Positions 2,740 through 55,534 are shown, counted from the first letter of the stretch. The stretch is 64,000 bases of DNA from Candidatus Nomurabacteria bacterium RIFCSPHIGHO2_12_FULL_42_19 (GCA_001786955.1 MFUM01000008.1:11062-75061), one strand, 5' to 3'. Notes: generated from the sequence alone by a model not told the origin. Made by a program: numbers and translations.

Positions 2740-5199
2740 ATGGCAAAAAATAACGAAAAAACAAAAGAAGAATTACAAGCGGATACGATTCTTCCGGTTG
2801 ACGTTGTGGCGGAAATGAAAGAATCCTACCTGGCCTATGCGATGTCGGTTATTACTTCGCGCGCTTTGCCGGATGTTCGCGACGGGCTGAAGCCCGTGCA
2901 CCGCAGAATCCTGTTTGCTATGCACGAGATGGGCTTGACCTCCTCGGCGCGTTTTCGGAAATCTGCCGCAGTCGTCGGAGATGTGCTCGGGAAATATCAT
3001 CCGCATGGCGACACGGCTGTTTACGATTCCATGGTGGGGATGGCCCAGGAATTTTCTTATCGCTACCCTTTGGTTTTAGGGCAGGGGAACTTCGGTTCGA
3101 TTGACGGAGATAACGCCGCCGCAATGCGCTATACCGAAGCAAAAATGTCCAAGATTTCCTCCGAGCTTTTGCGGGATCTGGAAAAAGAAACGGTTGATTT
3201 CCGCCCGAACTACGACCAGACCCGCAAAGAACCGGTAGTCTTTCCTTCTTCCGTGCCGGCATTGCTTCTGAATGGCACGCTCGGCATTGCCGTCGGCATG
3301 GCGACAAATATTCCTTCGCACAATTTAGCGGAAGTGCTGGACGCGACAGATTATTTAATTGAAAATGACGATGCCACGACTGAAGATTTGATGCAATTTA
3401 TAAAAGGGCCCGATTTTCCGACCGGCGGGATTGCTTACGGATCCAAAGATATGCTCCATGCGTATTCATCGGGGCGGGGCGGGATAGTCTGCCGGGGCGA
3501 AGCGGAAATAGTCGAGCAAAAAGACGGGAACTTCTCTATCGTCATCACCTCGATTCCTTTCCGGATAAATAAATCTAATTTAATAATAAGCATTGCGGAG
3601 CTGGTCCAGGAAAAAAAGCTTGAAGGCATCAAAGGGCTCCGGGACGAGTCCGCAAAAGACATCAGAATTGTCATTGATTTAAAAAATAGCGCGCATCCCG
3701 AAAAAGTTTTAAATTATATTTACAAAAATACCCAACTTGAGTCGAATTTTAATTTTAATATGGTTGCTCTGGTGGACGGCGTGCCCCAGACTTTGTCGCT
3801 CAAGTCCATACTGACTGAATTTATCGCGCACCGGAAGGAAGTAGTGAAACGCAGGAGCGCATATGATTTGCGTAAAGCGGAAGAGCGCGAGCATATCCTA
3901 CTCGGTCTGAAAAAGGCTTTGGATAAGATAGACCGGGTGATTGCCGTTATCCGCGGGTCAAATAATTCCCAAATTGCCAAATTGAATTTAATCAAAGAAT
4001 TTAAATTTTCAGACCTGCAGGCGGCAGCCATTTTGGAAATGAAGCTGGCAAAGCTCGCAGGACTCGAGCGAAAAGCCGTCGAAGACGAGCTTGCGGAAAA
4101 ACAAAAATTTATTGCGGGAATGAAAGACCTGCTGGCCAGCCCTAAAAAAATATTGAAAACGATTGCCGGAGAATTGAAAGAAATCCGCGAAAAATATGCC
4201 GATGAGCGCCGCACCAAAATAGTAAAAGGCGGGGTTAAGGAAATTTCCGACGAGGATTTGGTTCCGGAAAAAGAAACAATGCTCGTGCTGACGGCCGGAG
4301 GGTATGTAAAATGCACCGACCCTTCCGAATACCGCGCGCAAAAGCGGGGCGGCGTGGGAGTGATTGACCTGGAAACCAAAGAAGAGGATTTTGTGACGAT
4401 GCTCGTTTCCGGCTCCACTCACAGCAATACTTTGTTCTTTACCAACCTTGGCAAGGTTTATCAGATGAAAATGTATGATATTCCGGAAGGCCGCCGGGCA
4501 ACCCGCGGCAAATCCATTATGAATTTTCTGGCACTTTCGGCGGAAGAAAAAGTAAGTTCCATTTTGGCATTACCAAAAGACATTGGGAAAAATCCTTCTT
4601 CCTTAATGCTTGTCACCAAACATGGCACGGCGAAAAAAATGTCTTCCGAAAGCTTCAAGGATGTGCGCCGGAGCGGTATTATTGCTATCCGACTGGACAA
4701 AAATGACCAGCTTATTTCCGCATTGGTGACGGAAAAAGGCGATGAAGTCATGATTGCGACAGCTGACGGTCAGTCTATCAGGTTTAAGGAATCCGACGTG
4801 CGCGAAATGGGCAGGACGGCCGGAGGAGTGAGCGGCATCAGGCTGGGAAAAAACGATCAAGTTATCGGAGTTGATGTGGTAAAGAAAGGAAGCGAAAAGG
4901 GCTCATTCCTGACAATGAGCGCCAATGGTTTTGGCAAAAAGACTGGCTTGAAAGAATATAAAGTCCAGAAACGCGGGGGTTCCGGAGTGAAGACAGCCAA
5001 GGTAACTGCAAAAACAGGCAAGCTTATCGTGGCGAAAGTACTGACCGGAGAAGAAATGGAACTGATTGCCATGTCCAAGAAAGGGCAGGTAATACGAACG
5101 GCGCTCAAAGATATTTCCTCTTTAGGTCGCCAGACGCAGGGCGTGACCGTTATGCGCTTGCGCGCGGGCGATGGTATTGCGTCTTTAGCTTGTATATAA
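2740..5199 (+). CDS. gyrA: DNA gyrase subunit A
   Basis: Canonical '[28 protein letters not shown]' and 'YHPHGD' motifs; C-terminal beta-pinwheel repeats; 819 aa. Confidence 0.95.
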
Positions 5200-5206
5200 T
5201 GTATAT

Positions 5207-5722
5207 ATGTTCTCCGACCCGGTAAAAAATTTAAAAGCTTTGGGTTTGCGAGAAAACGACATCGTGGCGGACTTGGGGGCGGGGACCGGGTATTATGCTG
5301 TCGCGGCCGGAACGCTCGTGCCGAAAGGAAAAGTGTATGCTGTTGAATTACAAAAAGATTTTTTAGATACGATCAGAAATAAGGCAAAAGAAGCCCATTT
5401 AGAGAATGTGGAAATCATCTGGGGGAATATTGAAAAAATCGGCGGAACGAAAATAGGCGATGGTGTCGCGGATGCGGTTATTGCTTCAAACGTACTTTTT
5501 CAAGTTGAAGAAAAAGATAAATTTATTGAAGAGGTAAAAAGAATATTGAAACAGAAAGGCCGGGTGTTATTGATCGACTGGTCAGAGTCATCGATTATGG
5601 GCGCAACCGCGGTTATTCCCAAAAACAAAGCCCGGGAAATGTTCGAGAAGAAAGGCTTTATTCCGGAGCGGGAAATTGATGCGGGAAACCACCATTATGG
5701 TATGATATTGATAAAGCAATGA
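5207..5722 (+). CDS. Class I SAM-dependent methyltransferase
   Basis: Motif I 'VADLGAGTGYYA', an acidic residue after the beta2 strand, and 'VLLIDW'. Overlaps the next gene by 4 nt. Confidence 0.7.
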   Translation: MFSDPVKNLKALGLRENDIVADLGAGTGYYAVAAGTLVPKGKVYAVELQKDFLDTIRNKAKEAHLENVEIIWGNIEKIGGTKIGDGVADAVIASNVLFQVEEKDKFIEEVKRILKQKGRVLLIDWSESSIMGATAVIPKNKAREMFEKKGFIPEREIDAGNHHYGMILIKQ

Positions 5723-7008
5723 GAGGAAATTTCCAACTTATCGTCATAATTGTGTTTATTGTTGCCGCTATTTTAGGCATTTTGGTTTTTTCCGGAGCAA
5801 TACCACTTGGGAGCGACGGAGCAGGCAGTCTCGGAACTGTCGTTTTGTGGGGAACTACCCCAACCCGGTCGATTGCCGGGGCACTGGAAGATTTTAATAA
5901 TACCAATCCTACTTTAATCGTGAAATATGAACAAAAATCTCCCGATACTTTCGACCAGGATTTGCTTGAAGCACTGGCTTCAGGCGCCGGTCCCGATATG
6001 TTTTTCCTGCCCGACAGCCTGGTTTTTAATTATGCCAATAAGATTTTTGCTATTCCATATGCAAGTTATCCGCTAAATACTTTTAAAAATATTTTCGCCG
6101 GCGCCGGAGAAGTGTTTTTGACTTCCAAGGGCGTTTTGGCTTTTCCGATAACCATTGATCCACTTATGATGTATTACAACAGGAGCATTCTGGATGCGAA
6201 CGGAGTTATTTACCCTCCGGCTTCCTGGGATGACTTAATGAATCTCGTGCCAGCCCTGACCAAAAAAGACGACTCAAATAAAATAATAAAAAGCGCGGTA
6301 GCGCTCGGGCATTTCCCGAATGTGGCTCATGCTAAAGACATCCTGGCTGCTCTTTTTATGCAGGCCGGCAATCCGATTGTTGCAGAAAAGGACGGAGTTT
6401 TTAGTTCGGTTTTGAATTCACCGGTTGGAAATTACAATCTTCCTTCAGTTTTAAAATTTTACACGGATTTTGCAGACCCGAGCAAACCTGTATATTCCTG
6501 GAACCGGTCTTTTCCCGATTCTGATAATGTTTTTTCGGCGGAAAATCTGGCATTTTATTTCGGTTATGCCAGCGAACTCCAGTCTTTGGTAAATAAAAAT
6601 CCCAATCAGAACTTTTTTGTCGCGCCAATGCCTCAGATTAAGAATTCCAATTTCAAGCTGACCGGAGCTCGTGTGACCGGTCTGGCTATCTCGTCTTTTT
6701 CCAAGAATTTTGATACGGCTTTCACGGCAGCGAGCCTGATGACTAATGGCGATTTTGCTTCCAAGTTTGCGGCTGCTTTAGATACGCCGCCGGCCCGCCG
6801 AGATTTGCTTGCTACAAAACCGGCTGATGCTTATTCTCCGATTTTTTACAGTTCGGCATTATACGCGAAAAGTTGGCTGGATCCGTCGCCGGAAGATACC
6901 GATAATATTTTCAGCGGAATGGTTAATGCAGTGCTTTCAAATAATCTATCGGTGGGTGATGCCGTCAAAGATGCCAGTTCCAAGCTGAGTCTTTTATTAT
7001 TCAAGTAG
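5719..7008 (+). CDS. Extracellular solute-binding protein (ABC transporter SBP family-1-like) with N-terminal membrane anchor
   Basis: 'TVVLWGT...ALEDFNNTNPTLIVKYEQ...LLEALASGAGPDMFF' matches the SBP_bac_1 N-lobe pattern. N-terminal TM helix present. Confidence 0.6.
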   Translation: MRGNFQLIVIIVFIVAAILGILVFSGAIPLGSDGAGSLGTVVLWGTTPTRSIAGALEDFNNTNPTLIVKYEQKSPDTFDQDLLEALASGAGPDMFFLPDSLVFNYANKIFAIPYASYPLNTFKNIFAGAGEVFLTSKGVLAFPITIDPLMMYYNRSILDANGVIYPPASWDDLMNLVPALTKKDDSNKIIKSAVALGHFPNVAHAKDILAALFMQAGNPIVAEKDGVFSSVLNSPVGNYNLPSVLKFYTDFADPSKPVYSWNRSFPDSDNVFSAENLAFYFGYASELQSLVNKNPNQNFFVAPMPQIKNSNFKLTGARVTGLAISSFSKNFDTAFTAASLMTNGDFASKFAAALDTPPARRDLLATKPADAYSPIFYSSALYAKSWLDPSPEDTDNIFSGMVNAVLSNNLSVGDAVKDASSKLSLLLFK

Positions 7009-7023
7009 TCGCGCTATAATGAC

Positions 7024-7051
7024 GGTTGCGCGACATGATTTCGCGAAATCA
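7024..7051 (+). promoter_or_regulatory. Conserved ~27-nt element (tgcgcgacatgatttcgcgaaatcaat) immediately upstream of pilin-like gene; copy 1
   Basis: 27/29 identical to the element at 7765-7798 upstream of the third pilin-like gene. Contains short inverted repeat cgcga-N8-tcgcg. Confidence 0.4.
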
Positions 7052-7450
7052 ATGAAAAAAACAAAAAAATTCCTAATTTTTATTTCAATATTTTTAATAC
7101 TAGTTATGCCGGTTCTGTCTTTGGCATACACACTTGGAGAACCCTTAGTGCCACCTTGCAGTACAGCAGCAGCACCAGAGCAATGTGGATGGGGTCAGCT
7201 AATGGGGCTTGTCGATAATGTTATTACTTTTATTTTGAAGTATATGGCTGTGCCGATTGCGGCGATAATGTTCGCTTATGCCGGTTTTCTTTTGGTCACA
7301 GCGGGCGGGGAAGCGGCTGGCGCCAGGACGAAAGCCAAGTCAATTTTTACCAATGCGGCAATTGGCTTGATTCTTGCCGTGGCCGCCTGGCTGATTATTA
7401 AGACGATATTGGCAATTTTGGGCTACGAAGGGGCTTGGATTGGATTTTAA
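7052..7450 (+). CDS. TrbC/VirB2-like (T4SS-pilin-like) small membrane protein; signal peptide plus two TM helices
   Basis: ORF track starts at 7019; an in-frame ATG at 7052 (MKKTKKFLIF...) gives a typical signal peptide. Two hydrophobic helices separated by the charged loop 'GGEAAGARTKAKS'. Confidence 0.5.
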   Translation: MKKTKKFLIFISIFLILVMPVLSLAYTLGEPLVPPCSTAAAPEQCGWGQLMGLVDNVITFILKYMAVPIAAIMFAYAGFLLVTAGGEAAGARTKAKSIFTNAAIGLILAVAAWLIIKTILAILGYEGAWIGF

Positions 7451-7737
7451 TATGTGTTACAATTAAAACGATGATTAATAATCCAATACCAAATATAACT
7501 TCAATACCCAATCTCATTCAAACCATTCTGGAAGGCGCGCTGAAAATCGGCATGCCAGTCGTGGCATTGGCGGTTATTTACTGCGGTTTTCTTTTTGTTT
7601 TTGCCCGGGGCAATCCAGAGAAATTGACTAAAGCCAGAGAAGCCCTTCTTTATACATTAATCGGCGCGGCAATACTTCTGGGATCGTGGGCTATTGCCAA
7701 GATGATATCTGCTACCGTGACCGGGCTTGGGTCTTAA
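7435..7737 (+). CDS. TrbC/VirB2-like (T4SS-pilin-like) small membrane protein, divergent paralog
   Basis: Two TM helices flanking the charged loop 'RGNPEKLTKAREA'; same architecture as neighbours. Start uncertain (overlaps previous ORF). Confidence 0.4.
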   Translation: MDWILICVTIKTMINNPIPNITSIPNLIQTILEGALKIGMPVVALAVIYCGFLFVFARGNPEKLTKAREALLYTLIGAAILLGSWAIAKMISATVTGLGS

Positions 7738-7764
7738 AATTATTATTAAGCGTCGCGCTTTAAT

Positions 7765-7798
7765 GGACTTTGCGCAACATGATTTCGTGAAATCAATT
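7765..7798 (+). promoter_or_regulatory. Conserved upstream element, copy 2 (tgcgcaacatgatttcgtgaaatcaat)
   Basis: Near-identical to 7024-7051; ends at the likely true start codon (7799). Confidence 0.4.
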
Positions 7799-8506
7799 AT
7801 GAAAAAATTATTTAAAATCATTCCCATACTTTTTTTTACAATCTTATTTCCAATTATTGCCTTGGCTGATTTTGTGGGTCCTTGTCCTACAGGTACTCAC
7901 TATACCATTTCAGGTTGTGTTCCTGACGGTTTGGGCGGTATATTATACAATATATCAAAACTCCTTAATTTAATTATCCCAGTTTTACTGTCTTTGGGCG
8001 TGGTCTATTTTGTTTGGGGAGTGGTGCGGTATGTTATTGGCGATAGTGAAGAAGCTAAAAAGAAAGGAAGGGACAGAATGATATATGGCATCATCGGCCT
8101 GACTGTTATCACCAGTTTATGGGGACTTGTGAATATCGTCGTTGAAACTTTTGGTATTGGTGGTGCTTCTGCGCCTTCATTAGAACCTTTAACCGGGCCG
8201 GCTTCTACCTGTAATCTTGCAGGCAATCCTAAATTTCAGGATCTTTTATGCTATATCACCCGCATTATTAACGATTCGGTAATTCCTTTGATTTTTGCCC
8301 TGGCTACGGTTATGTTTGTCTGGGGTATGGTAAACTTTTTTATACTTAATGCTGATGAAGAAGTTAAAAGGGCGCAGGGCAAGCAGTTTATGATTTGGGG
8401 GATTGTTGCTTTGGCGGTAATGCTTTCTGTCTGGGGATTGGTCGGAATACTTGGCAGCACCTTTAATGTTGACAGCTCAATTCTTCCACAGGTAACTCCG
8501 CCCTAA
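7799..8506 (+). CDS. Tandem double T4SS-pilin-like protein (two pilin modules fused in one ORF)
   Basis: Two copies of the module '...VYFVWGV..Y.IGDSEEAKKKGRDRMIYGIIGLTV...LWGLVNIV..TFG', starting near residues 80 and 170. ORF track start is 7727; likely start is 7799 (MKKLFKIIPILFF). Confidence 0.55.
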   Translation: MKKLFKIIPILFFTILFPIIALADFVGPCPTGTHYTISGCVPDGLGGILYNISKLLNLIIPVLLSLGVVYFVWGVVRYVIGDSEEAKKKGRDRMIYGIIGLTVITSLWGLVNIVVETFGIGGASAPSLEPLTGPASTCNLAGNPKFQDLLCYITRIINDSVIPLIFALATVMFVWGMVNFFILNADEEVKRAQGKQFMIWGIVALAVMLSVWGLVGILGSTFNVDSSILPQVTPP

Positions 8507-8703
8507 TTTGCCAGCTTATAGATGTTTTACTTTAATTATGCTTGTGCTATAATTAAGGAATAAGAGAAGGATAAATAAGCTTGCTTGTTTATCCCGAACG
8601 AAAGAGTTGATTATATTGTATTTAGTTATATAATTAAGGGACATTATTAGTTATTATAAGGTCGTTTTATTATTAACATTATTATTAGAATATTAGGAAT
8701 CAT

Positions 8704-9096
8704 ATGAAAAAGAAATTAATTGTGTTGTCGGGTTTCGTTTTAGGCTTGGCGCCGGTTGTGGCACTGGCTCAAACTACCGGTGGTTTGGTTGGGTGTACTG
8801 CTGCCAATGCCCCAGGAGGAACTATCCAATATTTAATATGTAAACTGGGTGATCTTCTTAATCTTGTTGTTCCGATTCTTATAGCGCTGGGAGTGGTTTA
8901 TTTTGTCTGGGGAGTCATTACTTATATGATTGGTAGTGATGAAGAGGCAAAAAAAGCGGGAAGAGACCGCATTATCTTTGGTATTATCGGTCTGGCTGTT
9001 ATTATAGCCTTGTGGGGGCTTGTAAGAATATTGACAAATACTTTTGGGGTTCCTACGGCTGGCCAAGGTGTTACTTTGCCGACCACACCTTACTAG
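8704..9096 (+). CDS. T4SS-pilin-like (TrbC/VirB2-like) protein
   Basis: Signal peptide (MKKKLIVLSGFVLGLAPVVALA) and the module 'VVYFVWGVITYMIGSDEEAKKAGRDRIIFGIIGLAVIIALWGLV', near-identical to the modules in 7799-8506. Confidence 0.6.
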   Translation: MKKKLIVLSGFVLGLAPVVALAQTTGGLVGCTAANAPGGTIQYLICKLGDLLNLVVPILIALGVVYFVWGVITYMIGSDEEAKKAGRDRIIFGIIGLAVIIALWGLVRILTNTFGVPTAGQGVTLPTTPY

Positions 9097-9121
9097 TTCA
9101 TAAAGAAAAAGAAGACAAAAT

Positions 9122-9436
9122 ATGGATTTATTTTCTACGAAGATAGTTTACGCCAGTCTTGATTCTTTTATTGGAAAGGTAGACCGGATGATTATAAATC
9201 CGCTTATTTTGTTTCTCTTTGCTTTGGCCGTGGCGTATTTTCTTTACGGTGTTCTGGAGTTTTTTTTAAATCAGGAAAATGATGAGAAAAAAACAACCGG
9301 CAAAAGCCATATGCTTTGGGGTGTTATCGGGATTACCATAATGCTCGGAGTTTGGACTATTCTTGGTATTATTACAAACACCCTAGGGATATCTGGTCAA
9401 ATAAATCCAGAGCAGGGAACAGTAGACTTGAGATAA
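9122..9436 (+). CDS. T4SS-pilin-like small membrane protein, divergent
   Basis: Two TM helices separated by 'NQENDEKKTTGKSHMLWGVIGITIML', similar to the module of its neighbours. Confidence 0.45.
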   Translation: MDLFSTKIVYASLDSFIGKVDRMIINPLILFLFALAVAYFLYGVLEFFLNQENDEKKTTGKSHMLWGVIGITIMLGVWTILGIITNTLGISGQINPEQGTVDLR

Positions 9437-9462
9437 TTGTAATAAATCCTGATGCAATAAAA

Positions 9463-9496
9463 ACAAAAAAAATCCCCCTATTGGGGGATTTTTTTA
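9463..9496. terminator. Bidirectional rho-independent terminator (aaaaaaaatccccc-tatt-gggggattttttt)
   Basis: Perfect stem with flanking A/T runs between convergent genes. Confidence 0.7.
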
Positions 9497-9504: not shown

Positions 9505-10035
9505 CTATTCGTGCTTCAATGGTGTTGCGTGATAGTTCTCTTTGGTGTTAAAAATTATTCTTGTCAATATAACCAGCAACAAAATGAGTATTGCAAACAT
9601 GATCCACTGGATTAATCCGGAAGGCAGGAAACCGCTTATCCCGTAAAAAGCATTGGCTGCGAGACCGCTGTAAGTGTTGGAATTTTTTGTAGATGCAGAT
9701 GATGCTACGGTTTTTACGGCGCTGGCTGTTTTTACTTTTGCTGTTTTTGGAACAGTTGCCGAGTTTTCCGCATTCGGATTTACGCTATTTGAATAGACTA
9801 TCGGTGTAGGCGCGGGAGCCGGAGGGGGAGTATAAATCGGCGGCTGATAAGGAGATTGATTGGCATTATAATAATAACCATCATTATAATAACCATGAAC
9901 CGGTACAAAAACTTCATTAGCAGAAGCCTTGTTAAAAGGCATAAAAATCAAGACAAACGCCAAAATAGCCAATATTTTCAAGCCATAATTTATTGATTTG
10001 TTGTTTATTTTCTTCATATGCAAGTAGTATATCAC
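9505..10035 (-). CDS. Secreted/cell-surface protein, Tyr/Pro-rich low-complexity region, C-terminal TM anchor; hypothetical
   Basis: Signal peptide after the internal Met (MKKINNKS...ASA, likely start ~10017), a 'YYNDGYYYN...PPIYTPPPAPAPTP' region, and a C-terminal hydrophobic helix. Confidence 0.4.
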   Translation of the reverse strand: MIYYLHMKKINNKSINYGLKILAILAFVLIFMPFNKASANEVFVPVHGYYNDGYYYNANQSPYQPPIYTPPPAPAPTPIVYSNSVNPNAENSATVPKTAKVKTASAVKTVASSASTKNSNTYSGLAANAFYGISGFLPSGLIQWIMFAILILLLVILTRIIFNTKENYHATPLKHE

Positions 10036-10158: not shown

Positions 10159-10635
10159 CTATCTGCGCCTGTAGCCGATGATGGGGGCGAACACCCCTTG
10201 CCCCCCCTGGAGTCCGCCGCCGTAGGGCGAGGGGACAACGACCTGCAACGGCCGGTGGTCGTCCCGGCTGTTGTCGCGGCGGACTTCGTTGTCCTGGCGC
10301 GATTGTTCGCCGATGTGGCGGAGTCGCTCGACCTCAGCCGTTGTTTCGGCGGCCAAGATTTTTTTCGCCGCTTCGAGAGCAGACTCGGCTTTCACGAGTG
10401 CCAGCTTCGCTTCAGCGATTTTCGTCGCTGCCTCGATTTCCGCGATCTTTTTGTCGGTCGCGGTGACCGTCGTGGCCGTCATGTCGGTCGCCGTCTGTGC
10501 CGACACCGCCAGTGTGCAAGCCTGCCCGGTCGTGGAGCTGAACGCTGCCCCGGCCGTACAGCCTGCCGGGAAGGTTTGCGCCGACGCGGTGCCGACGAGT
10601 CCGAGAGCGAACACGACGACGAGAGTGAGTTTCAT
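10159..10635 (-). CDS. GC-rich gene encoding a secreted coiled-coil protein (signal peptide MKLTLVVVFALGLVGTASA), likely horizontally acquired
   Basis: Strong SD (GAGGAG) 7 nt upstream of the ATG at 10635. Signal peptide, Thr/Ala-rich region, heptad-like 'KKIAEIEAATKIAEAKLALVKAESALEAAKK'. GC content and codon usage are visibly unlike the flanks. The ORF track's 10159..10731 version has an upstream in-frame Met judged unlikely. Confidence 0.5.
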   Translation of the reverse strand: MKLTLVVVFALGLVGTASAQTFPAGCTAGAAFSSTTGQACTLAVSAQTATDMTATTVTATDKKIAEIEAATKIAEAKLALVKAESALEAAKKILAAETTAEVERLRHIGEQSRQDNEVRRDNSRDDHRPLQVVVPSPYGGGLQGGQGVFAPIIGYRRR

Positions 10636-10806
10636 GGTAATCTCCTCGTGAACTGGCGGGGTTAGCCACCGGGTTGATGGTATCTTTTTTTGGGTCTCCG
10701 TGCCTGGAAGCACTAATTTTTTTACTTGCAAACACGGAAACCCAATTATTTTAAAGAGCTGACTACTGGGGATAGTATAGCATATCTATACACAAAAGTC
10801 AAGGGT

Positions 10807-10895: not shown

Positions 10896-10920
10896 GCAAA
10901 AATATATCCCATATATTTTG

Positions 10921-11002
10921 TGCCGGGAGGGAGACTCGAACTCCCAAGGGTTGCCCCACTAGTTCCTAAAACTAGCGCGTATACCAATTCCGCCATCCCG
11001 GC
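10921..11002 (-). tRNA. tRNA-Leu (anticodon TAG), class II with long variable arm
   Basis: Cloverleaf folds by hand: acceptor GCCGGGA/TCCCGGC, anticodon stem CTAGT/ACTAG with loop TTTAGGA, T-loop GTTCGAGTC, discriminator A. Confidence 0.85.
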
Positions 11003-11049
11003 ATGTAAATTCTCTCGTGCTTCGGTCCGCACTTTGTGGTCAGGAATAG

Positions 11050-11095
11050 TTTTCTGCTGAAAACTTTCCCAACCCGGACTCGCTCCGTCTCGCAC
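11050..11095 (-). repeat. Repeated tRNA-leader motif, copy 2 (upstream of tRNA-Leu-TAG)
   Basis: Core ttttctgctgaaaa (plus-strand reading). Confidence 0.4.
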
Positions 11096-11113
11096 AAAGC
11101 ATCCCATGCTTTG

Positions 11114-11186
11114 TGCGCCCTGAAGGGATCGAACCTTCGACCTTATCCTTAAGAGGGATCTGCTCTACCAGCTGAGCTAAGGGCGC
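11114..11186 (-). tRNA. tRNA-Lys (anticodon CTT)
   Basis: Acceptor GCGCCCT/AGGGCGC, D-arm GCTCAGCTGGTAGAGC, anticodon loop CTCTTAA, T-arm GAAGGTTCGATCCCTTC. Confidence 0.85.
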
Positions 11187-11231
11187 AAATATTTTATTTT
11201 TTCAAGAAACAATTATTTATTATCTTATAAT

Positions 11232-11262
11232 CTTTCGACCTACCAAAACAGCTAAGGGCGCA
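11232..11262 (-). repeat. tRNA-Lys-derived fragment (T-arm piece fused to 5' acceptor/D piece)
   Basis: ctttcgacct...cagctaagggcgca matches two separated parts of the adjacent tRNA-Lys. Confidence 0.45.
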
Positions 11263-11348
11263 TATAAATTTTAAAACAGCTATGCCTGCCCGTCCGTAGC
11301 GTAAGCGAAGGCGGGGGCGCAAATAATTTATTTTTTTAAAAAACAAAG

Positions 11349-11432
11349 TGCCCGGGGTGGGAATCGAACCCACATGACCTTGCGGTCGGGAAATTTTAAG
11401 TCTCCTGCGGCTACCAATTACGCCACCCGGGC
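11349..11432 (-). tRNA. tRNA-Leu (anticodon TAA), class II
   Basis: Acceptor GCCCGGG/CCCGGGC, anticodon stem GGAGA/TTTCC with loop CTTAAAA, long variable arm, T-arm GTGGGTTCGATTCCCAC. Confidence 0.85.
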
Positions 11433-11464
11433 AATTATAATGTTTTAATTTTCAAATTACAAAC

Positions 11465-11536
11465 GGAGGCCTGGGGCGGAATTGAACCGCCGTATATTCC
11501 TTTTGCAGAGGAATGCCTTACCACTTGGCTACCAGG
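11465..11536 (-). tRNA. tRNA-Cys (anticodon GCA), discriminator U, CC encoded
   Basis: Acceptor GGCCTGG/CCAGGCC, anticodon stem TTCCT/AGGAA with loop CTGCAAA, T-arm GGCGGTTCAATTCCGCC. Confidence 0.85.
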
Positions 11537-11564
11537 CCTTACACTTTTTCTTGCTAATATTTTA

Positions 11565-19088: not shown

Positions 19089-19171
19089 GCGTCGGTGGTA
19101 GAGTGGTCAATTACAACAGACTGTAAATCTGTCGCCTTAGGGCTACGAAGGTTCGAATCCTTCCCGACGCA
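19089..19171 (+). tRNA. tRNA-Tyr (anticodon GTA), long variable arm
   Basis: Acceptor GCGTCGG/CCGACGC, anticodon stem ACAGA/TCTGT with loop CTGTAAA, T-arm GAAGGTTCGAATCCTTC, discriminator A. Confidence 0.85.
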
Positions 19172-19247
19172 CAAAAACTTGCAGTTTTTATAAAATTATG
19201 TTATAATATCAAGTAATAAGAAATATAGAGAAAGCCTGAAGGCTTTT

Positions 19248-22345: not shown

Positions 22346-23695
22346 ATGATTGATGTTGTGATTTTTTGGGCGTATAAGATATTGATAGGTCTTTTACCTG
22401 TGGCTGGAGTGATAGCGCTTGGGTGGGTTGCTTGGAAATTCTGGGTTCACTACATACAGCAGGATTTTATTTCCGGAATAGACTTTGTCCTGCTTGAAAT
22501 AGTCCCGCCGCGCGATGTTTTACGGAGTCCGAAAGCAATGGAACTTTTTATAACTAATGCTCTTTATCACTGGAGCATGAAAGGAGGCAAGGAAGAATAT
22601 TGGCAAGGAGCCGTATGGTTTTGGTTTTCTCTGGAGATTGCGTCGATTGACGGGCAGGTGCATTTTTACATCCGGACGCCGACGCGCATCAGGGGCTTGA
22701 TTGAAACCCAAATGTATGCCCAATATCCCCAGGCGCAAGTCAAGGCAGTGGAGGACTATACTTTGGGAGTTGATGAGATAACTCCCAAGGGCGCCTGGAA
22801 CGGCTGGGGGTGCGAATTTAAGCTGACGAAACCCGAGGCGTTTCCTATCAGAACTTATGTTGATTATGGATTGGATAAAGACCCGGACGAGGAAGTGAAA
22901 GTTGACCCTATTTCTCCGGTGGTGGAATTTTTCGGGTCGCTAGGGAAAGGAGAACAAGCATGGATGCAGATTATTGTTACACCTTCAAAGAAAGTATATC
23001 GTACTAAGGGGACATTGTTTGGATATCACGACTGGGTTAGAGAATCCAGATTGCAGGTAGAAAAGTTTTTGAAACCTTTTACCCGTTTTCACCCGGACCC
23101 GACCGAACCCGGAAGATATGCGAAAGAAATTCGCGTTCCGGGATTTTTGGATGCTACCATGAAGGCCATGAGCGCGAAAACCTCCAAGCTTGGCTTTGAT
23201 ACCGGGGTTAGGTTAATGTATGTTGCCAAGAAAGAGATATATCCTCCAGGTTCTAGAACCAATAATTCTAGAGATATCCGTTTAGTTTTGCGTCAATATG
23301 CGAAACCTGACTGTAATGAGTTTTATCGCATAAATTCAGCCCAAGGAGATGCTCTTAATAGCAGCATACTTACGCTTTCCCGTTTTCAAGTAATGACTTT
23401 AGCAAATAGAATGCTTCATGAATATCGCGAAAGAGCATTTTTCCATCTCCCTCTTAGGCATCATATTTTTTCCGTACATATTTTTGAAGCTATATTTCCA
23501 AAACCCATTATTCATGCAATATTCATGACTATGATAAAACCATTTTTCTTGCCTTATGTGCACCACAAAACTTTCGTCTTAAATACCGAGGAGTTGGCGA
23601 CGATGTGGCACTTCCCGGGCCAGATTTTGAAAGTTCCTACTCTTGAACGCATTGAGTCCAAGGAAGCTTCTCCTCCTTCGAACTTACCGACTTAA
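22346..23695 (+). CDS. Membrane-anchored hypothetical protein (possibly a detached N-terminal module of the VirD4/TraD-like proteins)
   Basis: N-terminal TM helix, a large soluble domain, and a C-terminus '...TEELATMWHFPGQILKVP'. Confidence 0.3.
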   Translation: MIDVVIFWAYKILIGLLPVAGVIALGWVAWKFWVHYIQQDFISGIDFVLLEIVPPRDVLRSPKAMELFITNALYHWSMKGGKEEYWQGAVWFWFSLEIASIDGQVHFYIRTPTRIRGLIETQMYAQYPQAQVKAVEDYTLGVDEITPKGAWNGWGCEFKLTKPEAFPIRTYVDYGLDKDPDEEVKVDPISPVVEFFGSLGKGEQAWMQIIVTPSKKVYRTKGTLFGYHDWVRESRLQVEKFLKPFTRFHPDPTEPGRYAKEIRVPGFLDATMKAMSAKTSKLGFDTGVRLMYVAKKEIYPPGSRTNNSRDIRLVLRQYAKPDCNEFYRINSAQGDALNSSILTLSRFQVMTLANRMLHEYRERAFFHLPLRHHIFSVHIFEAIFPKPIIHAIFMTMIKPFFLPYVHHKTFVLNTEELATMWHFPGQILKVPTLERIESKEASPPSNLPT

Positions 23696-28567: not shown

Positions 28568-29749
28568 ATGAGTATTTTCCCCGGGTCTAAAGAAAAAGGC
28601 GAGTTGGTATTGGTTTTCAATATCGGGTCTTCTTCGGTCGGGGGAGCGCTTTTTTGGGCGCAAAGTTCTGGAATCCCCAAAATAATTTTTTCCATTCAAG
28701 AACCGGTGGCCATTGAAGATAAAATTGATATTGACCGATTTTTATTCCTAACGATGCAATCATTGAAAATTGTTGTTGAAAAAATTTATAAAGCTGGCGT
28801 GGGTGCTCCCTCCCGGATTTTTTGCGTTCTTTCCTCGCCTTGGTATGTTTCCCAAACGCGGATAATCAATCTTAAAAAAAACACACCTTTTATATTTACC
28901 GCAAAGCTGGCTGATGACTTGATTCAAAAAGAAGTAAATCTTTTTGAGGAAGAACATTCAAAAAGAAAAAAGAATATTGGCAACTCTGTCCGCACAATTG
29001 AGCTTAAAAATATAAAAATAATATTAAACGGCTATGAAACATCAAAACCCTTAAATCAAAAAACAAAAGAATTGGAAATGATTATTTTTATTTCCATGAG
29101 CGGGGAACAGGTGTTGAAAAAGATAGAAGATACAATCAGCAAGCATTTTCACTTCAAGCAAATAACTTTTTCTTCTTTTGTGATGGCATCTTTTACCGTG
29201 GTGCGCGATATGTACATGCAAAAGGGAGATTTTCTTTTGGTTGATATCGGCGGGGAGATGACGGATATTTCAATGATAAAGAAAAATATATTGCGCGAGT
29301 CGATTTCGTTTCCTTTAGGCCGGAATTTTTTGACACGCGGAGTCGCATCCAACCTGGGTTGCACCCTGGATGAAGCAGACCCCCTAATTTCTCTTTTTAA
29401 AGACAAGCACGCGGAAAAATCTGTAGTCAAAAAACTTACGCCAATTATGGACCAGTTAAAAACAGAATGGCTCAAGAAGTTTCAGGAATCTTTAGCCAAT
29501 CTTTCCAACGATCTTTCTATTCCGGCGACTATTTACATAGCCATTGATAAAGACTTGGCAGATTTTTTTTCCGAAACAATCAAAACTGAGCAATTTAATC
29601 AGTATACTTTGACGGAATCAAAATTTGAAATTATTTTTTTAAACACCCAGATGCTTCATGATACCGCAGTGTTTGAAGAAAACGTAATTCGCGAGCCATT
29701 TCTTATTATTGACTCTATTTACATTAATCGTTTTTTGACTAAAATATAA
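28568..29749 (+). CDS. Actin-like ATPase-fold protein (FtsA/PilM-like), hypothetical
   Basis: N-terminal 'LVLVFNIGSSSVGGALF' phosphate-1-like motif; ~390 aa. Confidence 0.3.
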   Translation: MSIFPGSKEKGELVLVFNIGSSSVGGALFWAQSSGIPKIIFSIQEPVAIEDKIDIDRFLFLTMQSLKIVVEKIYKAGVGAPSRIFCVLSSPWYVSQTRIINLKKNTPFIFTAKLADDLIQKEVNLFEEEHSKRKKNIGNSVRTIELKNIKIILNGYETSKPLNQKTKELEMIIFISMSGEQVLKKIEDTISKHFHFKQITFSSFVMASFTVVRDMYMQKGDFLLVDIGGEMTDISMIKKNILRESISFPLGRNFLTRGVASNLGCTLDEADPLISLFKDKHAEKSVVKKLTPIMDQLKTEWLKKFQESLANLSNDLSIPATIYIAIDKDLADFFSETIKTEQFNQYTLTESKFEIIFLNTQMLHDTAVFEENVIREPFLIIDSIYINRFLTKI

Positions 29750-29751: not shown

Positions 29752-30993
29752 ATGTCCAAACATTTACTGGAAGATATGGTAAGAGTTAAGCATATCAGAA
29801 AAGAAACTGAGGCGAAAGAAATGCGGGGAACGGGAGAAATCAAGACAAATCGCGCCAAAAACAGGCCCCGATACATGCTCTGGAGCGTGGCATTTATTTC
29901 GGTTGTTTTTTTTGTTTTTGCCCTCTCTTTTTTATTTTCCTCAGCGGAAGTCGCGGTTAATCCAAAAACGAAAGATATAGTTTTAAACGAAAATTTGTTT
30001 GCCAGCAAAGACTCTAAAATCGACGGTTTATCTTTTGACTTGGTGGTTATTTCCGGCGAAGAAAATGCAGCAGTAAAAGCATCGGGAGAGAAAGATATTT
30101 TTCAAAAAGCTACAGGCACCGTTGTAATTTACAATACTTTCAGTTTTTCTCCCCAGGCACTCAGCATAGATACGAGACTGGAAGGTTCAAATGGAAAAAT
30201 TTATAAAACACAGACCAAAACTGTTGTGCCCGGGGAGCCAAAAACCGGCACTCCGGGATCAGTCGAAGTGAAAATTTATGGAGCAGAAGCCGGGCAAGAA
30301 TACAACAGCGGTCCGCTTGATTTCAAGATTTTTGGCTTTAAAGGGACTCCCAAATACTCCAAATTTTACGCCAGATCCAAAGGAGAGATTACCGGCGGAT
30401 TCAAAGGCAAGGCTCCTGCTGTTTCTGATACCGAAAAAGCAGCCGCTGTCGGTAATTTGAAAACTGCCCTGCAAACGAAACTCCTGAAAAAAGCAATTGA
30501 TCAGATTCCGGGCGGATTTGTCTTATTCAAGGATGCGATTTTTCTTGATATAGATGACGCGAATACCCCACTTGCTACCAAAAATAATGAGTTAATTATG
30601 ACGCTTAAGGGCAAGCTATACGGTTTTCTTTTTAATGAGCAAAAACTGACGAAAAAAATTGCCGAGAATAATATTGAAAAATATGACGGAAATGAAGTTC
30701 TTATTCCAAACATCAGAGATTTGATTTTTTCCCTTTCCGGCAAAAACAATATTTCATTCGACAATATGAAAAATATAAATTTTAATTTATCAGGCGCGGC
30801 AAAAATTATCTGGAAACTTGATACAAATAAATTTACCGCTGATTTATTGGGCAAATCAAAAAAGGATTTTAATCAAATACTTTTACGATACCCGAACATT
30901 GATTCTGCCACTTTAACGCTCAGTCCTGCGTGGAAAACCTCCATCCCCGGCCAATTCAAAGATATAAAAATAAATGTAAATTATTCGAAATAA
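29752..30993 (+). CDS. Bitopic membrane protein with large extracytoplasmic domain, hypothetical (possible partner of the preceding actin-like protein)
   Basis: Basic cytoplasmic N-terminus, single TM helix (WSVAFISVVFFVFALSFLF), ~340-aa external domain. Confidence 0.3.
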   Translation: MSKHLLEDMVRVKHIRKETEAKEMRGTGEIKTNRAKNRPRYMLWSVAFISVVFFVFALSFLFSSAEVAVNPKTKDIVLNENLFASKDSKIDGLSFDLVVISGEENAAVKASGEKDIFQKATGTVVIYNTFSFSPQALSIDTRLEGSNGKIYKTQTKTVVPGEPKTGTPGSVEVKIYGAEAGQEYNSGPLDFKIFGFKGTPKYSKFYARSKGEITGGFKGKAPAVSDTEKAAAVGNLKTALQTKLLKKAIDQIPGGFVLFKDAIFLDIDDANTPLATKNNELIMTLKGKLYGFLFNEQKLTKKIAENNIEKYDGNEVLIPNIRDLIFSLSGKNNISFDNMKNINFNLSGAAKIIWKLDTNKFTADLLGKSKKDFNQILLRYPNIDSATLTLSPAWKTSIPGQFKDIKINVNYSK

Positions 30994-54004: not shown

Positions 54005-55534
54005 GTGTTAAAATCATTAATATCTATGGCCAAACCGAATCGAGTGCAAATAATCAAATACGGTCCGCCGCCGCCGGAACTGCCTATATTCGGGAAGGTC
54101 AAGCCCGAAGAGGTTTCTTTTATCGGCCGGACCAATTATGTCGCGGCTCTGGAAGAAAAAAAGTTTATTTTCGGCATCAAACGGGTGGACCGCCGGAGGC
54201 ATCTTTACATTATCGGCAAATCGGGGGTAGGCAAATCGAAACTTTTGGAACTTCTGGTCAGGCAGGATGTAAGTTATGGGCATGGATTGTGTTTTATTGA
54301 TCCGCACGGCGATGAATTTAAAAACATTCTGGATTTTGTTCCCAAGGAACGCATTGAGGATGTTTGTGTGATTGATCCCACTGACGTTGATTTCCCGGCT
54401 TCATTTAATCCTCTGGCCAACGTTGATCCCGCTTTTAAATTCATTTTGACCCAAGGGTTGATTGAGGTATTTCAAAAACAATTCGGAGCAAATTGGACGC
54501 CCCGCCTGGAGCACGTTTTTCGTTTTACTTGCCTAGCGCTGCTGGATTATCCTCATGCCACTATGCGCGGAATGATTTCCATGCTGACGGACCGGAATTA
54601 CCGGCAGAAAGTAGTGGAGTATATTACGGACGACATGGTAAAAAGATTCTTCGCGATTGAATTCGCGGACTGGTCGGAAAAATTTGATACGGATGCGATT
54701 ATCCCGCTGGTTAACAAACTCGGACAATTTCTTTCGGATCCGCTTCTGCGAAATATCTTCGGTCAGAAAGAAAATAAAATAGACATTAGCAAACTGATGA
54801 ATGAAGGCAAAATTATCCTGATAAACATTTCCAAAGGCCGACTCGGAGAAGAGAATTCCTCTTTTCTCGGTTCTATCTTTTTGACGAAAATAAAACAGGC
54901 CGGCATGGAGCGCGCTTCAATGGACGAGTCTGCGCGCACGGATTTCTATCTCTATGTGGACGAGTTCCAAAATGTGGTAACCCAAACCTTTGAAAATATT
55001 TTATCGGAGGCCCGTAAATACGGACTTAATCTGACTATCGCGCATCAGTATGTGGGCCAGATTATTACCAAGGTGCACCAAGCCGTACTCGGTAATTGCG
55101 GCAGTATTATAACTTTCCGTGTGGGTGGCGAAGACGCGGTAAAAATGAAGCCGGAATTCGCTCCGCTTTTTGATGTGAAAGATATGATCAACCTGGCTGT
55201 CGGTGAAATCTATATAAAAATGACGATAGACGGCGAATCTTATGATCCATTCTCTGCCGAAACCCTAAGAGTCCTTCCCCCGACTCATCCATCCTATCGA
55301 GAGGAAATTATAGAGGCTTCGCATCGAAAATATACGATACCGAAAGATGCGGCCGCCAAGCTTATCGCCGAAGAAGAAGCGACAATTATCCGGAGCGCCG
55401 AAGAAAAAGCGATAATTGAAGGGAGGGCTAAAAGGAAAGCAAGAGAGCGCGGGGAGACGGTAGAGACGGATGACGGCGGCGAAAAAGAAGAAATAAAAGA
55501 AAAAACTTCACAAGAGGCCGAGCCCATGATTTAG
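54005..55534 (+). CDS. VirD4/TraD-like ATPase, second paralog (no zinc ribbon; acidic C-terminal tail)
   Basis: Walker A 'IIGKSGVGKS', Walker B 'FYLYVDEFQNV', 'LTIAHQYVGQI'; collinear with the 45708-47810 protein over ~400 aa. Confidence 0.55.
   Translation: MLKSLISMAKPNRVQIIKYGPPPPELPIFGKVKPEEVSFIGRTNYVAALEEKKFIFGIKRVDRRRHLYIIGKSGVGKSKLLELLVRQDVSYGHGLCFIDPHGDEFKNILDFVPKERIEDVCVIDPTDVDFPASFNPLANVDPAFKFILTQGLIEVFQKQFGANWTPRLEHVFRFTCLALLDYPHATMRGMISMLTDRNYRQKVVEYITDDMVKRFFAIEFADWSEKFDTDAIIPLVNKLGQFLSDPLLRNIFGQKENKIDISKLMNEGKIILINISKGRLGEENSSFLGSIFLTKIKQAGMERASMDESARTDFYLYVDEFQNVVTQTFENILSEARKYGLNLTIAHQYVGQIITKVHQAVLGNCGSIITFRVGGEDAVKMKPEFAPLFDVKDMINLAVGEIYIKMTIDGESYDPFSAETLRVLPPTHPSYREEIIEASHRKYTIPKDAAAKLIAEEEATIIRSAEEKAIIEGRAKRKARERGETVETDDGGEKEEIKEKTSQEAEPMI

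Follow-up and report, generated by a model that had tools for sequence, protein, structure and literature searches.

Tandem arrays of VirB2-like pilin genes have already been published for Patescibacteria, in which 441 arrays of 2 to 11 pilin genes are on record; paralogues within an array share 25% identity on average and 54% at most (PMC12102498). In Southlakia epibionticum, an array of six VirB2-like pilins is essential (PMC10633639, PMC12857230). Metatranscriptomes of Paceibacteria place T4SS pilins among the most highly expressed secreted proteins (PMC10936435). Of the 1,948 assemblies in which both VirB2-like pilins and VirB4 were detected, no more than 1,135 have the pilin gene near virB4 (PMC12102498), so that proximity to virB4 is not obligatory for this kind of array. 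In these papers a patescibacterial T4SS pilus is raised as a possibility only, and none of them shows a visualised one.

The locus described here lies in a 64-kb stretch (the window) of a Candidatus Nomurabacteria genome. An original prediction, made from the sequence alone, had pointed to five consecutive small ORFs preceded by a solute-binding protein (SBP) and a methyltransferase. The five ORFs, named P1 to P5, are indeed present on the + strand (7052-9436), and Pfam matches identify both preceding genes. The features of the locus are as follows.

5207-5722, + strand: class I SAM-dependent methyltransferase, 171 aa (Pfam Methyltransf_31/11/25)
5719-7008, + strand: family-1 SBP, 429 aa, membrane-anchored (PF01547, 6.8e-18)
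7008-7051, + strand: leader element, copy 1 (covariance model match, 76 bits)
7052-7450, + strand: pilin P1, 132 aa (PF18895, 33.3 bits)
7471-7737, + strand: pilin P2, 88 aa (PF18895, 37.5 bits)
7752-7798, + strand: leader element, copy 2 (covariance model match, 65.6 bits)
7799-8506, + strand: pilin P3, 235 aa, double (PF18895, 67.9 bits, two stretches)
8526-8553, + strand: sigma-70-like promoter match, TTTACT-16-TG-n-TATAAT (consensus scan only)
8704-9096, + strand: pilin P4, 130 aa (PF18895, 35.5 bits)
9122-9436, + strand: pilin P5, 104 aa (PF18895, 27.3 bits, marginal)
9466-9495, both directions: hairpin resembling an intrinsic terminator, 13 bp between A and T runs

The methyltransferase stop codon overlaps the SBP start (ATGA). 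The SBP has an N-terminal TM anchor without a lipobox and is only weakly similar to MalE; no ABC permease or ATPase gene adjoins it among the neighbouring genes checked. The second pilin gene had been thought to begin at a TTG (7435), for which the ATG at 7471 is most likely to be substituted, as gene callers and orthologue alignments concur. The P3-P4 spacer (197 nt) is AT-rich and contains the promoter match, and the hairpin at 9466-9495 ends both the pilin operon and a convergent gene (9505-10035).

All five genes exceed the gathering score (26.6 bits) of the Pfam family T4SS_pilin, PF18895. P5 is marginal against this profile, yet its orthologues are clear (median identity 67%). The family name given in the original prediction was thus correct, the HMM search proposed along with it being passed by five of five genes; so was the attribution to CPR bacteria, since the genome is patescibacterial. 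Likeness to TrbC/VirB2 pilins held at the level of the T4SS_pilin profile, but not at that of the classical profile PF04956, whose cut-off of 27.9 bits was reached by none of the five proteins: P2 scored best (23.1 bits, E 9e-5), P1 reached 14.2 bits, and P3, P4 and P5 gave no match. The best NCBIfam match for four of the five genes was NF045849, 'Mbov_0395 pilin-like conjugal transfer protein', with scores for P2, P3, P4 and P5 of 25.1 to 31.3 bits (E 1e-5 to 1e-7), short of that family's threshold of 40. No solved pilin was matched when all PDB sequences were searched with a profile, and fold searches were non-discriminating. Neither plasmids (72,556, tblastn with P2) nor phage records (50,697, tblastn with P4) yielded a match. 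Type IV pilus (T4P) pilins were considered and rejected: class III signal peptides and the G/F(M)xxxE prepilin motif are absent from all five proteins, and no T4P Pfam family was matched.

Two VirD4-like ATPases, also foreseen, lie elsewhere in the window (45708-47810 and 54005-55534); six paralogues of about 580 aa near them were examined as ATPases and rejected as such. No VirB4, VirB6 or VirB3 was found within the window or 10 kb upstream, and TrsD was likewise not recognised in the window. For the near-identical assembly GCA_000997645.1, VirB4 (KKS24061.1) and three T4CPs are listed (Quinonero-Coronel et al. 2025, PMC12102498, Tables S1/S3). P1 (KKS24170.1, identical) and P3 (KKS24172.1), retrieved by the CONJScan Tfc9/Tfc10 pilin profiles, appear in Table S3 of that survey as VirB2 homologues with 'VirB4 proximity: No', and the block does lie far from virB4. 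Profile similarity to pilins and other T4SS components in the genome, the absence of which had been named as evidence against the prediction, are therefore both present; together they support a T4SS-pilin interpretation of an already known kind.

With a module HMM, exactly six modules were detected in the 64 kb, all within P1-P5. Each is a hairpin of two hydrophobic helices of about 35 residues, connected through a short loop that is first acidic, then basic ([DE][DE]x[KR][KR]..G[KR]). Identity is 51.5% between the P3 N-module and P4, 36% between the P3 C-module and P4, 35.5% between the two P3 modules, and 15 to 32% for the remaining pairs, in agreement with the three good and three divergent copies first described; P4 is the paralogue closest to the P3 modules. 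A signal peptide and two TM helices had been expected in all five proteins. The helices are found in all, but the N-terminal Sec-type signal peptide (beginning MKK..., with a hydrophobic core and an SLA/ALA motif for cleavage) only in P1, P3 and P4, whose variable N-terminal segment also contains a Cys pair; by hydropathy, P2 and P5 consist of two hydrophobic helices only, with neither feature. In P1, cleavage is predicted at about SLA/Y, and the exposed N-terminal segment with the Cys pair is followed by two long helices and a conserved C-terminus, GYxGxWIGF. P4 combines a signal peptide (ALA/Q), Cys31 and Cys46, invariant in the orthologue alignment, helices at 41-76 and 80-113 (AF2 model, pLDDT 72), the basic loop DEEAKKAGRDR and a conserved C-tail, LPTxPY. 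P2, which gave the best sub-threshold TrbC/VirB2 match, is the most conserved paralogue (median identity 70%), and P5 has a conserved N-terminus, MDLFSTKIAYAS.

The proposed fusion of two modules in ORF 7799-8506 was borne out by the two PF18895 stretches. P3 is a head-to-tail fusion of two complete mature pilin units behind a single signal peptide (N-module about 7868-8203, C-module about 8204-8503), with four TM helices in total; in its linker, module 1 has kept its C-tail motif and module 2 its Cys-pair segment. The AF2 model shows two helical hairpins (45-80/84-117 and 146-181/188-221, pLDDT 60.7). Many of the 1189 P3 homologues are full length, and their alignment includes three-module relatives. 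Among 77 related loci, at least 62 have a two-module ORF in place of P3, a position that gains and loses modules among these loci. Across the family fused pilins are frequent, their modules numbering from 2 up to 17 per protein. We conclude that the fused P3 is a conserved feature of an otherwise known kind of array.

The order methyltransferase-SBP-P1-P2-P3-P4-P5 is kept in about 77 species-level genomes (77 complete related loci). The methyltransferase is always directly upstream of the SBP (74 related loci), and the SBP always directly upstream of the pilin genes, adjoining P1 in 76 related loci (median identity 68%); P1 orthologues were found in 76 loci. Each paralogue has its own 1:1 orthologues at its own position, with median identities of 55 to 70%, and the total number of modules is six in 45 of the 77 loci and seven in 19. 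The dN/dS ratio is 0.04 to 0.29 in helices and loops, compared to 0.3 to 0.66 in the exposed ends, and exceeds 1 in no region of the pilin paralogues, a comparison that had been suggested at the outset. Helices and loops are under purifying selection. The 'diversified' subunits of the original prediction are therefore diversified in the sense of an ancient divergence, now conserved, and not of ongoing diversifying selection: the five genes are a fixed, heteromeric set rather than a cassette for variation. The surrounding region (S1, gyrA etc.) is also syntenic in the related genomes, the block itself adjoining gyrA, so that adjacency alone is weak evidence for a link between SBP and pilins. 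All relatives retrieved with the SBP were at least 71% identical, and the SBP-pilin adjacency is thus seen within the clade.

A near-identical 27-nt element had been placed upstream of two genes, at 7024 and 7765. It is real, but its positions are 7027-7053 and 7771-7797; the copies are identical at 25 of 27 positions, with 0 matches expected by chance. The element is part of a leader of about 45 nt with two hairpins, assessed by a covariance model and pair counts. In copy 1, hairpin 1 pairs GTCGCGC (7008-7014) with GCGCGAC (7028-7034) across a 13-nt loop, and hairpin 2 pairs TGATTT (7036-7041) with AAATCA (7046-7051) across CGCG; this copy abuts the P1 ATG and occupies the whole SBP-P1 spacer. 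In copy 2, hairpin 1 (7752-7758 with 7772-7778) has one C.A mismatch, and hairpin 2 (7780-7785 with 7790-7795) is followed by ATT and the P3 ATG. The start codons guessed earlier, 7052 and 7799, are retained because the upstream in-frame ATGs (7019 and 7763) are not kept in frame in related copies, where a loop longer by 1 nt makes the upstream frame run into TGA.

The leader is not pilin-specific. In five related loci the P3-P4 spacer carries it in place of the promoter match, SBP genes of some genomes have it, and on other contigs of the same lineage it precedes the genes for EF-Tu, S12, L11, L7/L12, S5, rpoB, SecE, ClpP and SHMT. Its presence on EF-Tu, ribosomal-protein, rpoB and secE genes indicates that it marks high expression, which would imply that P1 and P3 are highly expressed.

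On balance, we favour the view, with reasonable though not strong confidence, that the locus encodes structural subunits of a T4SS-associated surface filament or conduit, in an ultrasmall, monoderm, probably host-attached Nomurabacteria cell from groundwater. Family membership and the literature suggest that the products form such a surface apparatus. By the positive-inside rule, the basic loop of every module would face the cytoplasm and both termini the outside (N-out/C-out), as in VirB2/TraA propilins, and the fusion would be topologically neutral, since TM2 of module 1 could act as the signal sequence of module 2. A VirB4 ATPase encoded elsewhere would then pull the pilins out of the membrane and assemble them into a polymer. 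The product would be heteromeric because the paralogues are non-interchangeable, with P4 and P3 as the likely bulk subunits, P1, P2 and P5 as specialised ones, and the fused P3 holding two adjacent positions at a 1:1 ratio. The exposed, faster-evolving surface would consist of the Cys-framed N-terminal segments and the C-tails. The apparatus would most likely serve host contact or exchange, and not conjugation.

Several observations speak against the favoured view: relatives with up to 17 fused modules do not fit easily with a simple helical homopolymer, VirB4, VirB6 and VirB3 are missing from the window and the 10 kb upstream, the classical TrbC/VirB2 profile is not reached, no solved pilin in the PDB is matched by sequence, P2 and P5 differ from classical pilins in having no cleavable signal peptide, and the papers cited treat a patescibacterial T4SS pilus as a possibility only. 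Fused proteolipid subunits occur in the rotor rings of V/A-type ATPases, which offers an analogy for fused hairpins. The products might form a short, stoichiometrically defined ring or channel spanning the membrane or wall, which could be the translocation pore of a reduced monoderm T4SS, with fusion setting subunit number and order. The fixed module number, the strict paralogue order, the covalent fusions, the strong constraint on the helices and the reserve of the literature about a pilus are all consistent with a ring. We nevertheless regard it as unlikely, given that the family is related, though weakly, to the pilus-forming VirB2/TrbC and Tfc9/10 pilins, that very high expression suits a polymer better than a single pore, and that the variable Cys-framed ecto-segments suggest an exposed surface.

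An interchangeable repertoire of major pilins for antigenic or host-range variation, a role proposed for the VirB2 arrays that Bartonella and Anaplasma possess, and also suggested in the case of Patescibacteria (PMC12102498), would account for the low paralogue identity (15 to 52%, like published arrays), the faster evolution of the exposed N-terminal segments and the module turnover at the P3 position. It appears improbable here: every paralogue has a positional orthologue throughout the 77 or so genomes, the paralogues differ in kind (signal peptide, Cys pair, distinct conserved termini), dN/dS is nowhere above 1, and the locus has neither silent cassettes nor recombination repeats, its sole repeat being the general leader. 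Finally, the family name might mislead at this locus, and the six hairpins with their twelve TM helices might join the SBP in an uptake system that depends on it and has nothing to do with type IV secretion. This reading can point to an adjacency invariant in the clade within a block that is never interrupted, to an SBP devoid of nearby ABC partners, to the distance from virB4 and to the leader shared by SBP copies in some genomes. We consider it very improbable, however, as VirB2-like pilin genes (CONJScan profiles, PF04956/PF18895) lie near virB4 in 1135 assemblies (PMC12102498) and pilins are essential together with T4SS genes in S. epibionticum (PMC12857230); moreover, neither signal peptides nor exposed Cys loops are features of a transporter, and the adjacency, known within the clade only, belongs to a region that is syntenic as a whole.

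The preferred filament or conduit can be compared with several described systems. The likeness to T4P pilins is in name only, both being 'pilins' used by Patescibacteria at the host interface, while fold and assembly machinery differ. Like the arrays of Bartonella and Anaplasma (cited in PMC12102498), the locus reflects tandem amplification and divergence of T4SS pilin genes; those arrays are read as variation repertoires, whereas the paralogues here are individually conserved, architecturally distinct and in fixed order. Mbov_0395 of the Mycoplasma ICE (NF045849) is a two-helix protein of about 80 residues from monoderm, MPF-FATA-type conjugation, a likeness that fits the published link of the patescibacterial T4SS to monoderm conjugation systems, although the window genes are chromosomal and not on an ICE. 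With VirB2/TrbC/TraA, the locus shares small helical hairpins with a short basic loop, predicted N-out/C-out, a Sec signal peptide in three of five genes, and VirB4 and VirD4 homologues in the genome; it differs in its monoderm host, its multi-paralogue set with fused modules, and the lack of a cleavable signal peptide in P2 and P5.

The closest relatives are the patescibacterial arrays (Wang et al. 2023, Cell, PMC10633639; Quinonero-Coronel et al. 2025, Microb Genom, PMC12102498), with which the locus has in common PF18895, the phylum and tandem low-identity genes: its five genes and six modules, at 15 to 52% mutual identity, form an array in the sense of at least two tandem pilin genes of low mutual identity, and its module number is about that of Southlakia epibionticum. 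The 2025 survey (PMC12102498), which covered this genome, recorded two of the five genes only, and mentions neither fusions nor an SBP link. Unlike these arrays, the present locus lies away from the virB4 cluster, within a fixed block that also comprises a methyltransferase and an SBP next to gyrA, and counts among its members a fused double pilin and two proteins without a signal peptide.

Each of the five small genes that follow the gene of a membrane-anchored solute-binding protein (SBP) exceeded the curated Pfam threshold of PF18895 ('T4SS_pilin'), and the third (P3) had two separate matches to this family. The genes and the terminator of the region are as follows.

2740-5199: gyrA, upstream of the methyltransferase, SBP and pilin genes
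5207-5722, plus strand: small methyltransferase gene, after gyrA
5719-7008, plus strand: SBP gene (membrane-anchored, family 1), after the methyltransferase gene
7052-7450, plus strand: pilin gene P1
7471-7737, plus strand: pilin gene P2, without signal peptide or cysteine pair
7799-8506, plus strand: pilin gene P3, two modules fused
8704-9096, plus strand: pilin gene P4
9122-9436, plus strand: pilin gene P5, without signal peptide or cysteine pair
9466-9495, both strands: strong bidirectional terminator, end of the pilin operon

The original prediction of five tandem pilin-like genes, one encoding a fused double pilin, is borne out by this arrangement of five adjacent genes on the plus strand, and the family name that had been proposed was the right one. 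The second module gene, which had been placed from 7435, most likely starts at the ATG at 7471. A module HMM found six modules in the 64 kb, every one of them inside the cluster, and on these profile matches the membership of the locus in PF18895 can be regarded as firm. Proteins identical to those of the region occur in groundwater Candidatus Nomurabacteria MAG entries (GW2011_GWC2_41_8, locus tags UU82_C0010G0017-20; UU58_C0004; the RIFCSP A2823_ series); these MAGs are Parcubacteria/Paceibacteria, within Patescibacteria (CPR). P3 (235 aa) is present in databases as gene calls of 247 and 259 aa.

Two long hydrophobic helices make up a module, and the short loop that joins them is acidic first and then basic (EEAKKKGRDR, DEEVKRAQGKQ, DEEAKKAGRDR, NPEKLTKARE, NDEKKTTGKSH and GEAAGARTKAKS). 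The common architecture that had been described, a signal peptide followed by two transmembrane helices, holds for the helices and loop in each module, but the signal peptide, like the cysteine pair, is found in P1, P3 and P4 only. AlphaFold2 models gave one helical hairpin for P4 (helices 41-76 and 80-113, pLDDT 72) and two for P3 (pLDDT 60.7). By the positive-inside rule, the loops would be cytoplasmic and both ends of every module outside. The P3 fusion would be topologically neutral, because TM2 of its first module leaves the chain outside, where the second module starts. The P3 linker, about 30 residues long, still has the C-tail motif found in complete pilins (TFG...P.L.P) and continues with a Cys-pair segment like that after the P4 signal peptide; P3 therefore consists of two mature units joined exactly head to tail. 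The linker also contains a conserved Ala-Pro after an AXA-like site. Proline at +1 inhibits signal-peptidase cleavage, which argues against processing within the linker.

Fusions of this kind turned out to be widespread. The double pilin had 1189 detectable homologues, of which many span its full length (220-260 aa); three modules occur in some of them. A six-module profile retrieved 31,934 representative clusters from 1.84 billion proteins; most of the best 150 of these clusters had at least two modules, with single polypeptides of 5, 6, 7, 8, 11 and 17 modules. The tandem arrays of the pilin unit are visible in the sequences of P0380 (606 aa) and P0478 (1775 aa), two proteins from this search; these, together with P0491 and P0385, carry 7, 8, 11 or 17 tandem PF18895 modules, and a Cys pair and a basic loop recur in every module. 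Because most of the best-scoring clusters are multi-module, fused 'poly-pilins' can be considered, on sequence grounds, a general trait of PF18895. A literature search found no mention of fused VirB2 pilins or poly-pilins. These natural head-to-tail fusions, of two modules in the window, three in close relatives and as many as 17 in the wider family, indicate which termini must lie next to each other after assembly, and any structural model of a pilus or ring must meet this constraint.

Conservation was assessed in 81 related loci, 80 found by scanning the species-representative genomes of GTDB release 232 and one from a complete genome. Gene order was constant in all of them: S1 (minus strand), a metallo-beta-lactamase-fold protein (Lactamase_B_3), a small ORF, gyrA, methyltransferase, SBP, P1, P2, P3, P4 and P5, and every ORF in this order was closest to the window paralogue of equal position. 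Insertions were found in the gap between gyrA and the methyltransferase gene and downstream of P5, never from the methyltransferase gene to P5. Median identity to the window proteins was 88% for GyrA, 68% for SBP, 70% for P2, 67% for P5, 61% for P4, 57% for P3 and 55% for P1. Module architectures were counted in the 77 complete loci.

1-1-2-1-1: 43 loci
1-1-1-2-1-1: 12 loci
1-1-1-1-1: 11 loci
1-1-2-1-1-1: 6 loci

The P3 position is thus where most of the change occurs. In helices and loops, dN/dS was 0.04-0.29 by pooled Nei-Gojobori estimation; in the exposed parts, namely the N-terminal segments framed by Cys and the C-tails, it was 0.3-0.66. These values are rough, since dS is about 1 and near saturation. 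A check for diversifying selection among the paralogues had been proposed; no region had a dN/dS above 1. Together, the conservation and the dN/dS pattern are the signature of paralogues that diverged anciently and are each individually constrained. They point to a heteromeric set rather than a repertoire under diversifying selection.

The small ORF directly 5' of gyrA (2467-2715, 82 aa, one TM helix) is conserved throughout the clade. The leader element of the pilin genes also precedes this ORF in many of the related genomes, but it is absent from this position in the window. The convergent gene at 9505-10035 (minus strand) encodes a protein of 176 aa that has a hydrophobic stretch near its N-terminus, a low-complexity central part rich in Tyr and Pro, and a TM helix at its C-terminus; most related loci also have a counterpart of this gene after the pilin block, though it is poorly conserved (about 35% identity). 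Farther on, the segment 10090-10735 is GC-rich and falls in the window's sole 2-kb bin of about 50% G+C (bins range from 34 to 50%). Long ORFs of the two strands overlap here. The plus-strand ORF (191 aa) is the one chosen by public gene callers; the minus-strand ORF 10159-10731, if read from an internal Met, has a plausible signal peptide and a segment rich in Ala, Glu and Lys that by eye resembles a coiled coil. A tRNA cluster (10920-11538, minus strand; Leu-TAG, Lys-CTT, Leu-TAA, Cys-GCA) lies about 1.5 kb past the pilin operon, and a tRNA-Tyr (19089-19172, plus strand) is separate from it.

The near-identical 27-nt element that had been noticed before two of the genes is real (25 of 27 positions identical, none expected by chance), but its true position is 7027-7053 and 7771-7797. 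It forms the 3' two-thirds of a unit of about 45 nt, found at 7008-7051 before P1 and at 7752-7798 before P3, which reads GTCGCGC, a 12-14-nt loop ending in GGACGRTT, GCGCGAC, A, TGATTT, CGYR and AAATCA, with the start codon 0-8 nt further (in compact form, GTCGCGC...GGACGRTTGCGCGAC A TGATTT CGYR AAATCA). Pairing was observed in 98-99% of cells, with changes on both sides in four to five pairs, a result that no column shuffle attains; in shifted registers the paired fraction falls to 20-50%. Compensated variants of hairpin 2 include CGATTC/GAATCG, CGATTT/AAATCG and TAATTT/AAATTA, and some copies contain a tandem second hairpin-2 unit that is fully compensated (CGATTC CGCA GAATCG). Folding z-scores are about -3 in canonical copies, and -0.7 and -1.1 in the two window copies; support for the two predicted hairpins thus comes from the other copies and the compensatory changes, the folding of the window copies being non-significant alone.

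The element was found by a covariance model in 17 of the 81 related loci (copies in L011-L083), always in gene orientation, before P1, P3, P4, SBP or the small ORF preceding gyrA. Among the matches listed, more than 118 metagenome contigs contained an exact 24-mer (copies in L086-L203). In a sample of ten, the genes directly downstream were confirmed with Pfam as encoding EF-Tu, S12, L11, L7/L12, S5, SecE, SecF, ClpP, SHMT and FKBP isomerase; L2, L18, S18, L31, EF-Ts, RpoB and MurG were recognized by N-terminal sequence only, and pilins P1, P3 and P4 by matching to the window proteins. In many Nomurabacteria-like contigs, then, the element lies immediately 5' of the start codons of EF-Tu, many ribosomal-protein genes, rpoB, secE, secF, clpP, glyA, murG and pilins. 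Judged by these downstream genes, it is a predicted lineage-wide leader of highly expressed genes and not a pilin signal. To our knowledge, the promoters and translation signals of the phylum are essentially uncharted; a leader shared by pilin, EF-Tu, ribosomal-protein, rpoB and secE genes would represent a strongly conserved expression signal. A high-expression leader fits the published report that T4SS pilins, in Paceibacteria metatranscriptomes, belong to the secreted proteins with the highest expression (PMC10936435).

Neither Rfam (at the gathering threshold and at E<=10) nor a literature search returned the element, and no Shine-Dalgarno sequence is visible between it and the ATG. That the sequence is so highly conserved suggests a role not just for structure but also for a conserved factor that recognizes it; the element may be a 5'-UTR or, alternatively, a promoter or operator. 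Three other interpretations were rejected. The TATAAT in hairpin 1 is not a -10 box, as the loop varies here between copies (CTAAGGGG and CTCGGAC are examples). A three-codon uORF in hairpin 2 (ATG ATT TCG TAA) is ruled out by compensated variants in which its ATG is ACG, ATA or GTG. As for N-terminal extensions of the pilins from ATG 7019 or 7763 or from TTG 7727, the corresponding ATG in other copies is out of frame and runs into a TGA, and the differences between the two window copies would all be non-synonymous.

No VirB4, VirB3 or VirB6 was found within the 64-kb window. For the near-identical assembly GCA_000997645.1, a VirB4 (KKS24061.1) and three T4CPs have been reported (Quinonero-Coronel et al. 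2025, PMC12102498). Two VirD4-like ATPases, as predicted, are encoded in the window (45708-47810 and 54005-55534). Near them lie six paralogues of 551-590 aa with 27-45% mutual identity, in two triplets (36194-37849, 37964-39667 and 39713-41455; 47842-49602, 49640-51391 and 51435-53207), each starting with a CxxC-x17-CxxC zinc ribbon. None had a confident Pfam match (E<=0.001), 37964-39667 having a weak sub-threshold match to zinc-finger PF23477, and 36194-37849, the sole paralogue compared with NCBIfam, had no match. The zinc-ribbon domain is also present in the ATPase 45708-47810 (PF23477, residues 451-482). The six were rejected as VirD4-like ATPases because they have no clear nucleotide-binding P-loop (a weak Walker-A pattern, GKFRKGKS, in one of six); they could be partners or substrates of coupling proteins. 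Elsewhere, the conserved ORFs 22346-23695 (449 aa) and 29752-30993 (413 aa) had no Pfam match even at E<=5; the latter follows an FtsA/actin-like ATPase (28568-29749), with which it might form a pilus- or division-related pair.

In the best-supported reading, which we consider probable, P1-P5 would be abundantly expressed, membrane-inserted VirB2-like subunits that a VirB4 machine encoded elsewhere builds into a heteromeric filament or conduit at the cell surface that serves interaction with a host, with P3 fixing two neighbouring positions. The fixed module number and the poly-fusions would also suit a short stoichiometric ring or channel instead of a pilus, which we regard as an unlikely but serious alternative. 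An interchangeable variation repertoire is contradicted by the orthology pattern: across a large Paceibacteria clade the paralogues are fixed, ordered and individually conserved, which argues for a heteromeric structure, and we hold such a repertoire to be very improbable.

Two readings give the SBP a leading part. The six modules may be non-interchangeable blocks of one heteromeric, covalently templated T4SS-type tube, whose neighbour order and stoichiometry the fusions would dictate; the orphan, membrane-anchored SBP, encoded next to the modules without exception, would cooperate with the tube in the import of host-derived solutes, not in conjugation. This would be a T4SS-derived import conduit of undescribed kind, and seems rather improbable. 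That the locus encodes an SBP-dependent uptake system unrelated to T4SS is suggested only by adjacency, within a fully syntenic clade, and hardly deserves credence; the relatives listed in a search for SBP homologues all had at least 71% identity.

How closely these proteins resemble known pilins can be specified. PF18895 membership is firm, but the VirB2 label is weaker, because the pilins fell short of the cut-off of the classical TrbC/VirB2 model (best 23.1 versus 27.9 bits), matched the mycoplasma ICE 'pilin-like' NCBIfam model only below its cut-off, and had no related solved structure when a sequence profile was compared with all PDB chains (spurious GPCR TM matches only). Fold searches with the models returned generic helical hairpins, and tblastn gave no match in a plasmid collection (P2 query) or a phage collection (P4 query). 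What speaks for the VirB2 name is thus a set of weak profile matches together with published work, in which KKS24170.1 and KKS24172.1 (P1 and P3) are listed as VirB2 homologues 'not near VirB4' via Tfc10/Tfc9 profiles (PMC12102498). In the same study, 441 arrays were recorded in Patescibacteria, with 2-11 VirB2-like genes each. In Southlakia epibionticum, a six-pilin array is essential, pilus formation being only a possibility (Wang et al. 2023, PMC10633639; 2025 review, PMC12857230); a T4SS and a VirB2-like pilin array are essential to the epibiotic life of the one genetically tractable patescibacterium. Because the arrays, the Southlakia example and the table entries, which include two of its genes, are already published, this type of locus is known. 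The finding is nevertheless real and its original interpretation supported. Should the fixed set, the fusions and the leader fail, the locus would be one more example of the published array type. Relative to these arrays, three features appear to be new: an operon with an SBP that is fixed across the clade, a conserved fused pilin that belongs to a broader pattern of poly-pilins, and the shared two-hairpin leader.
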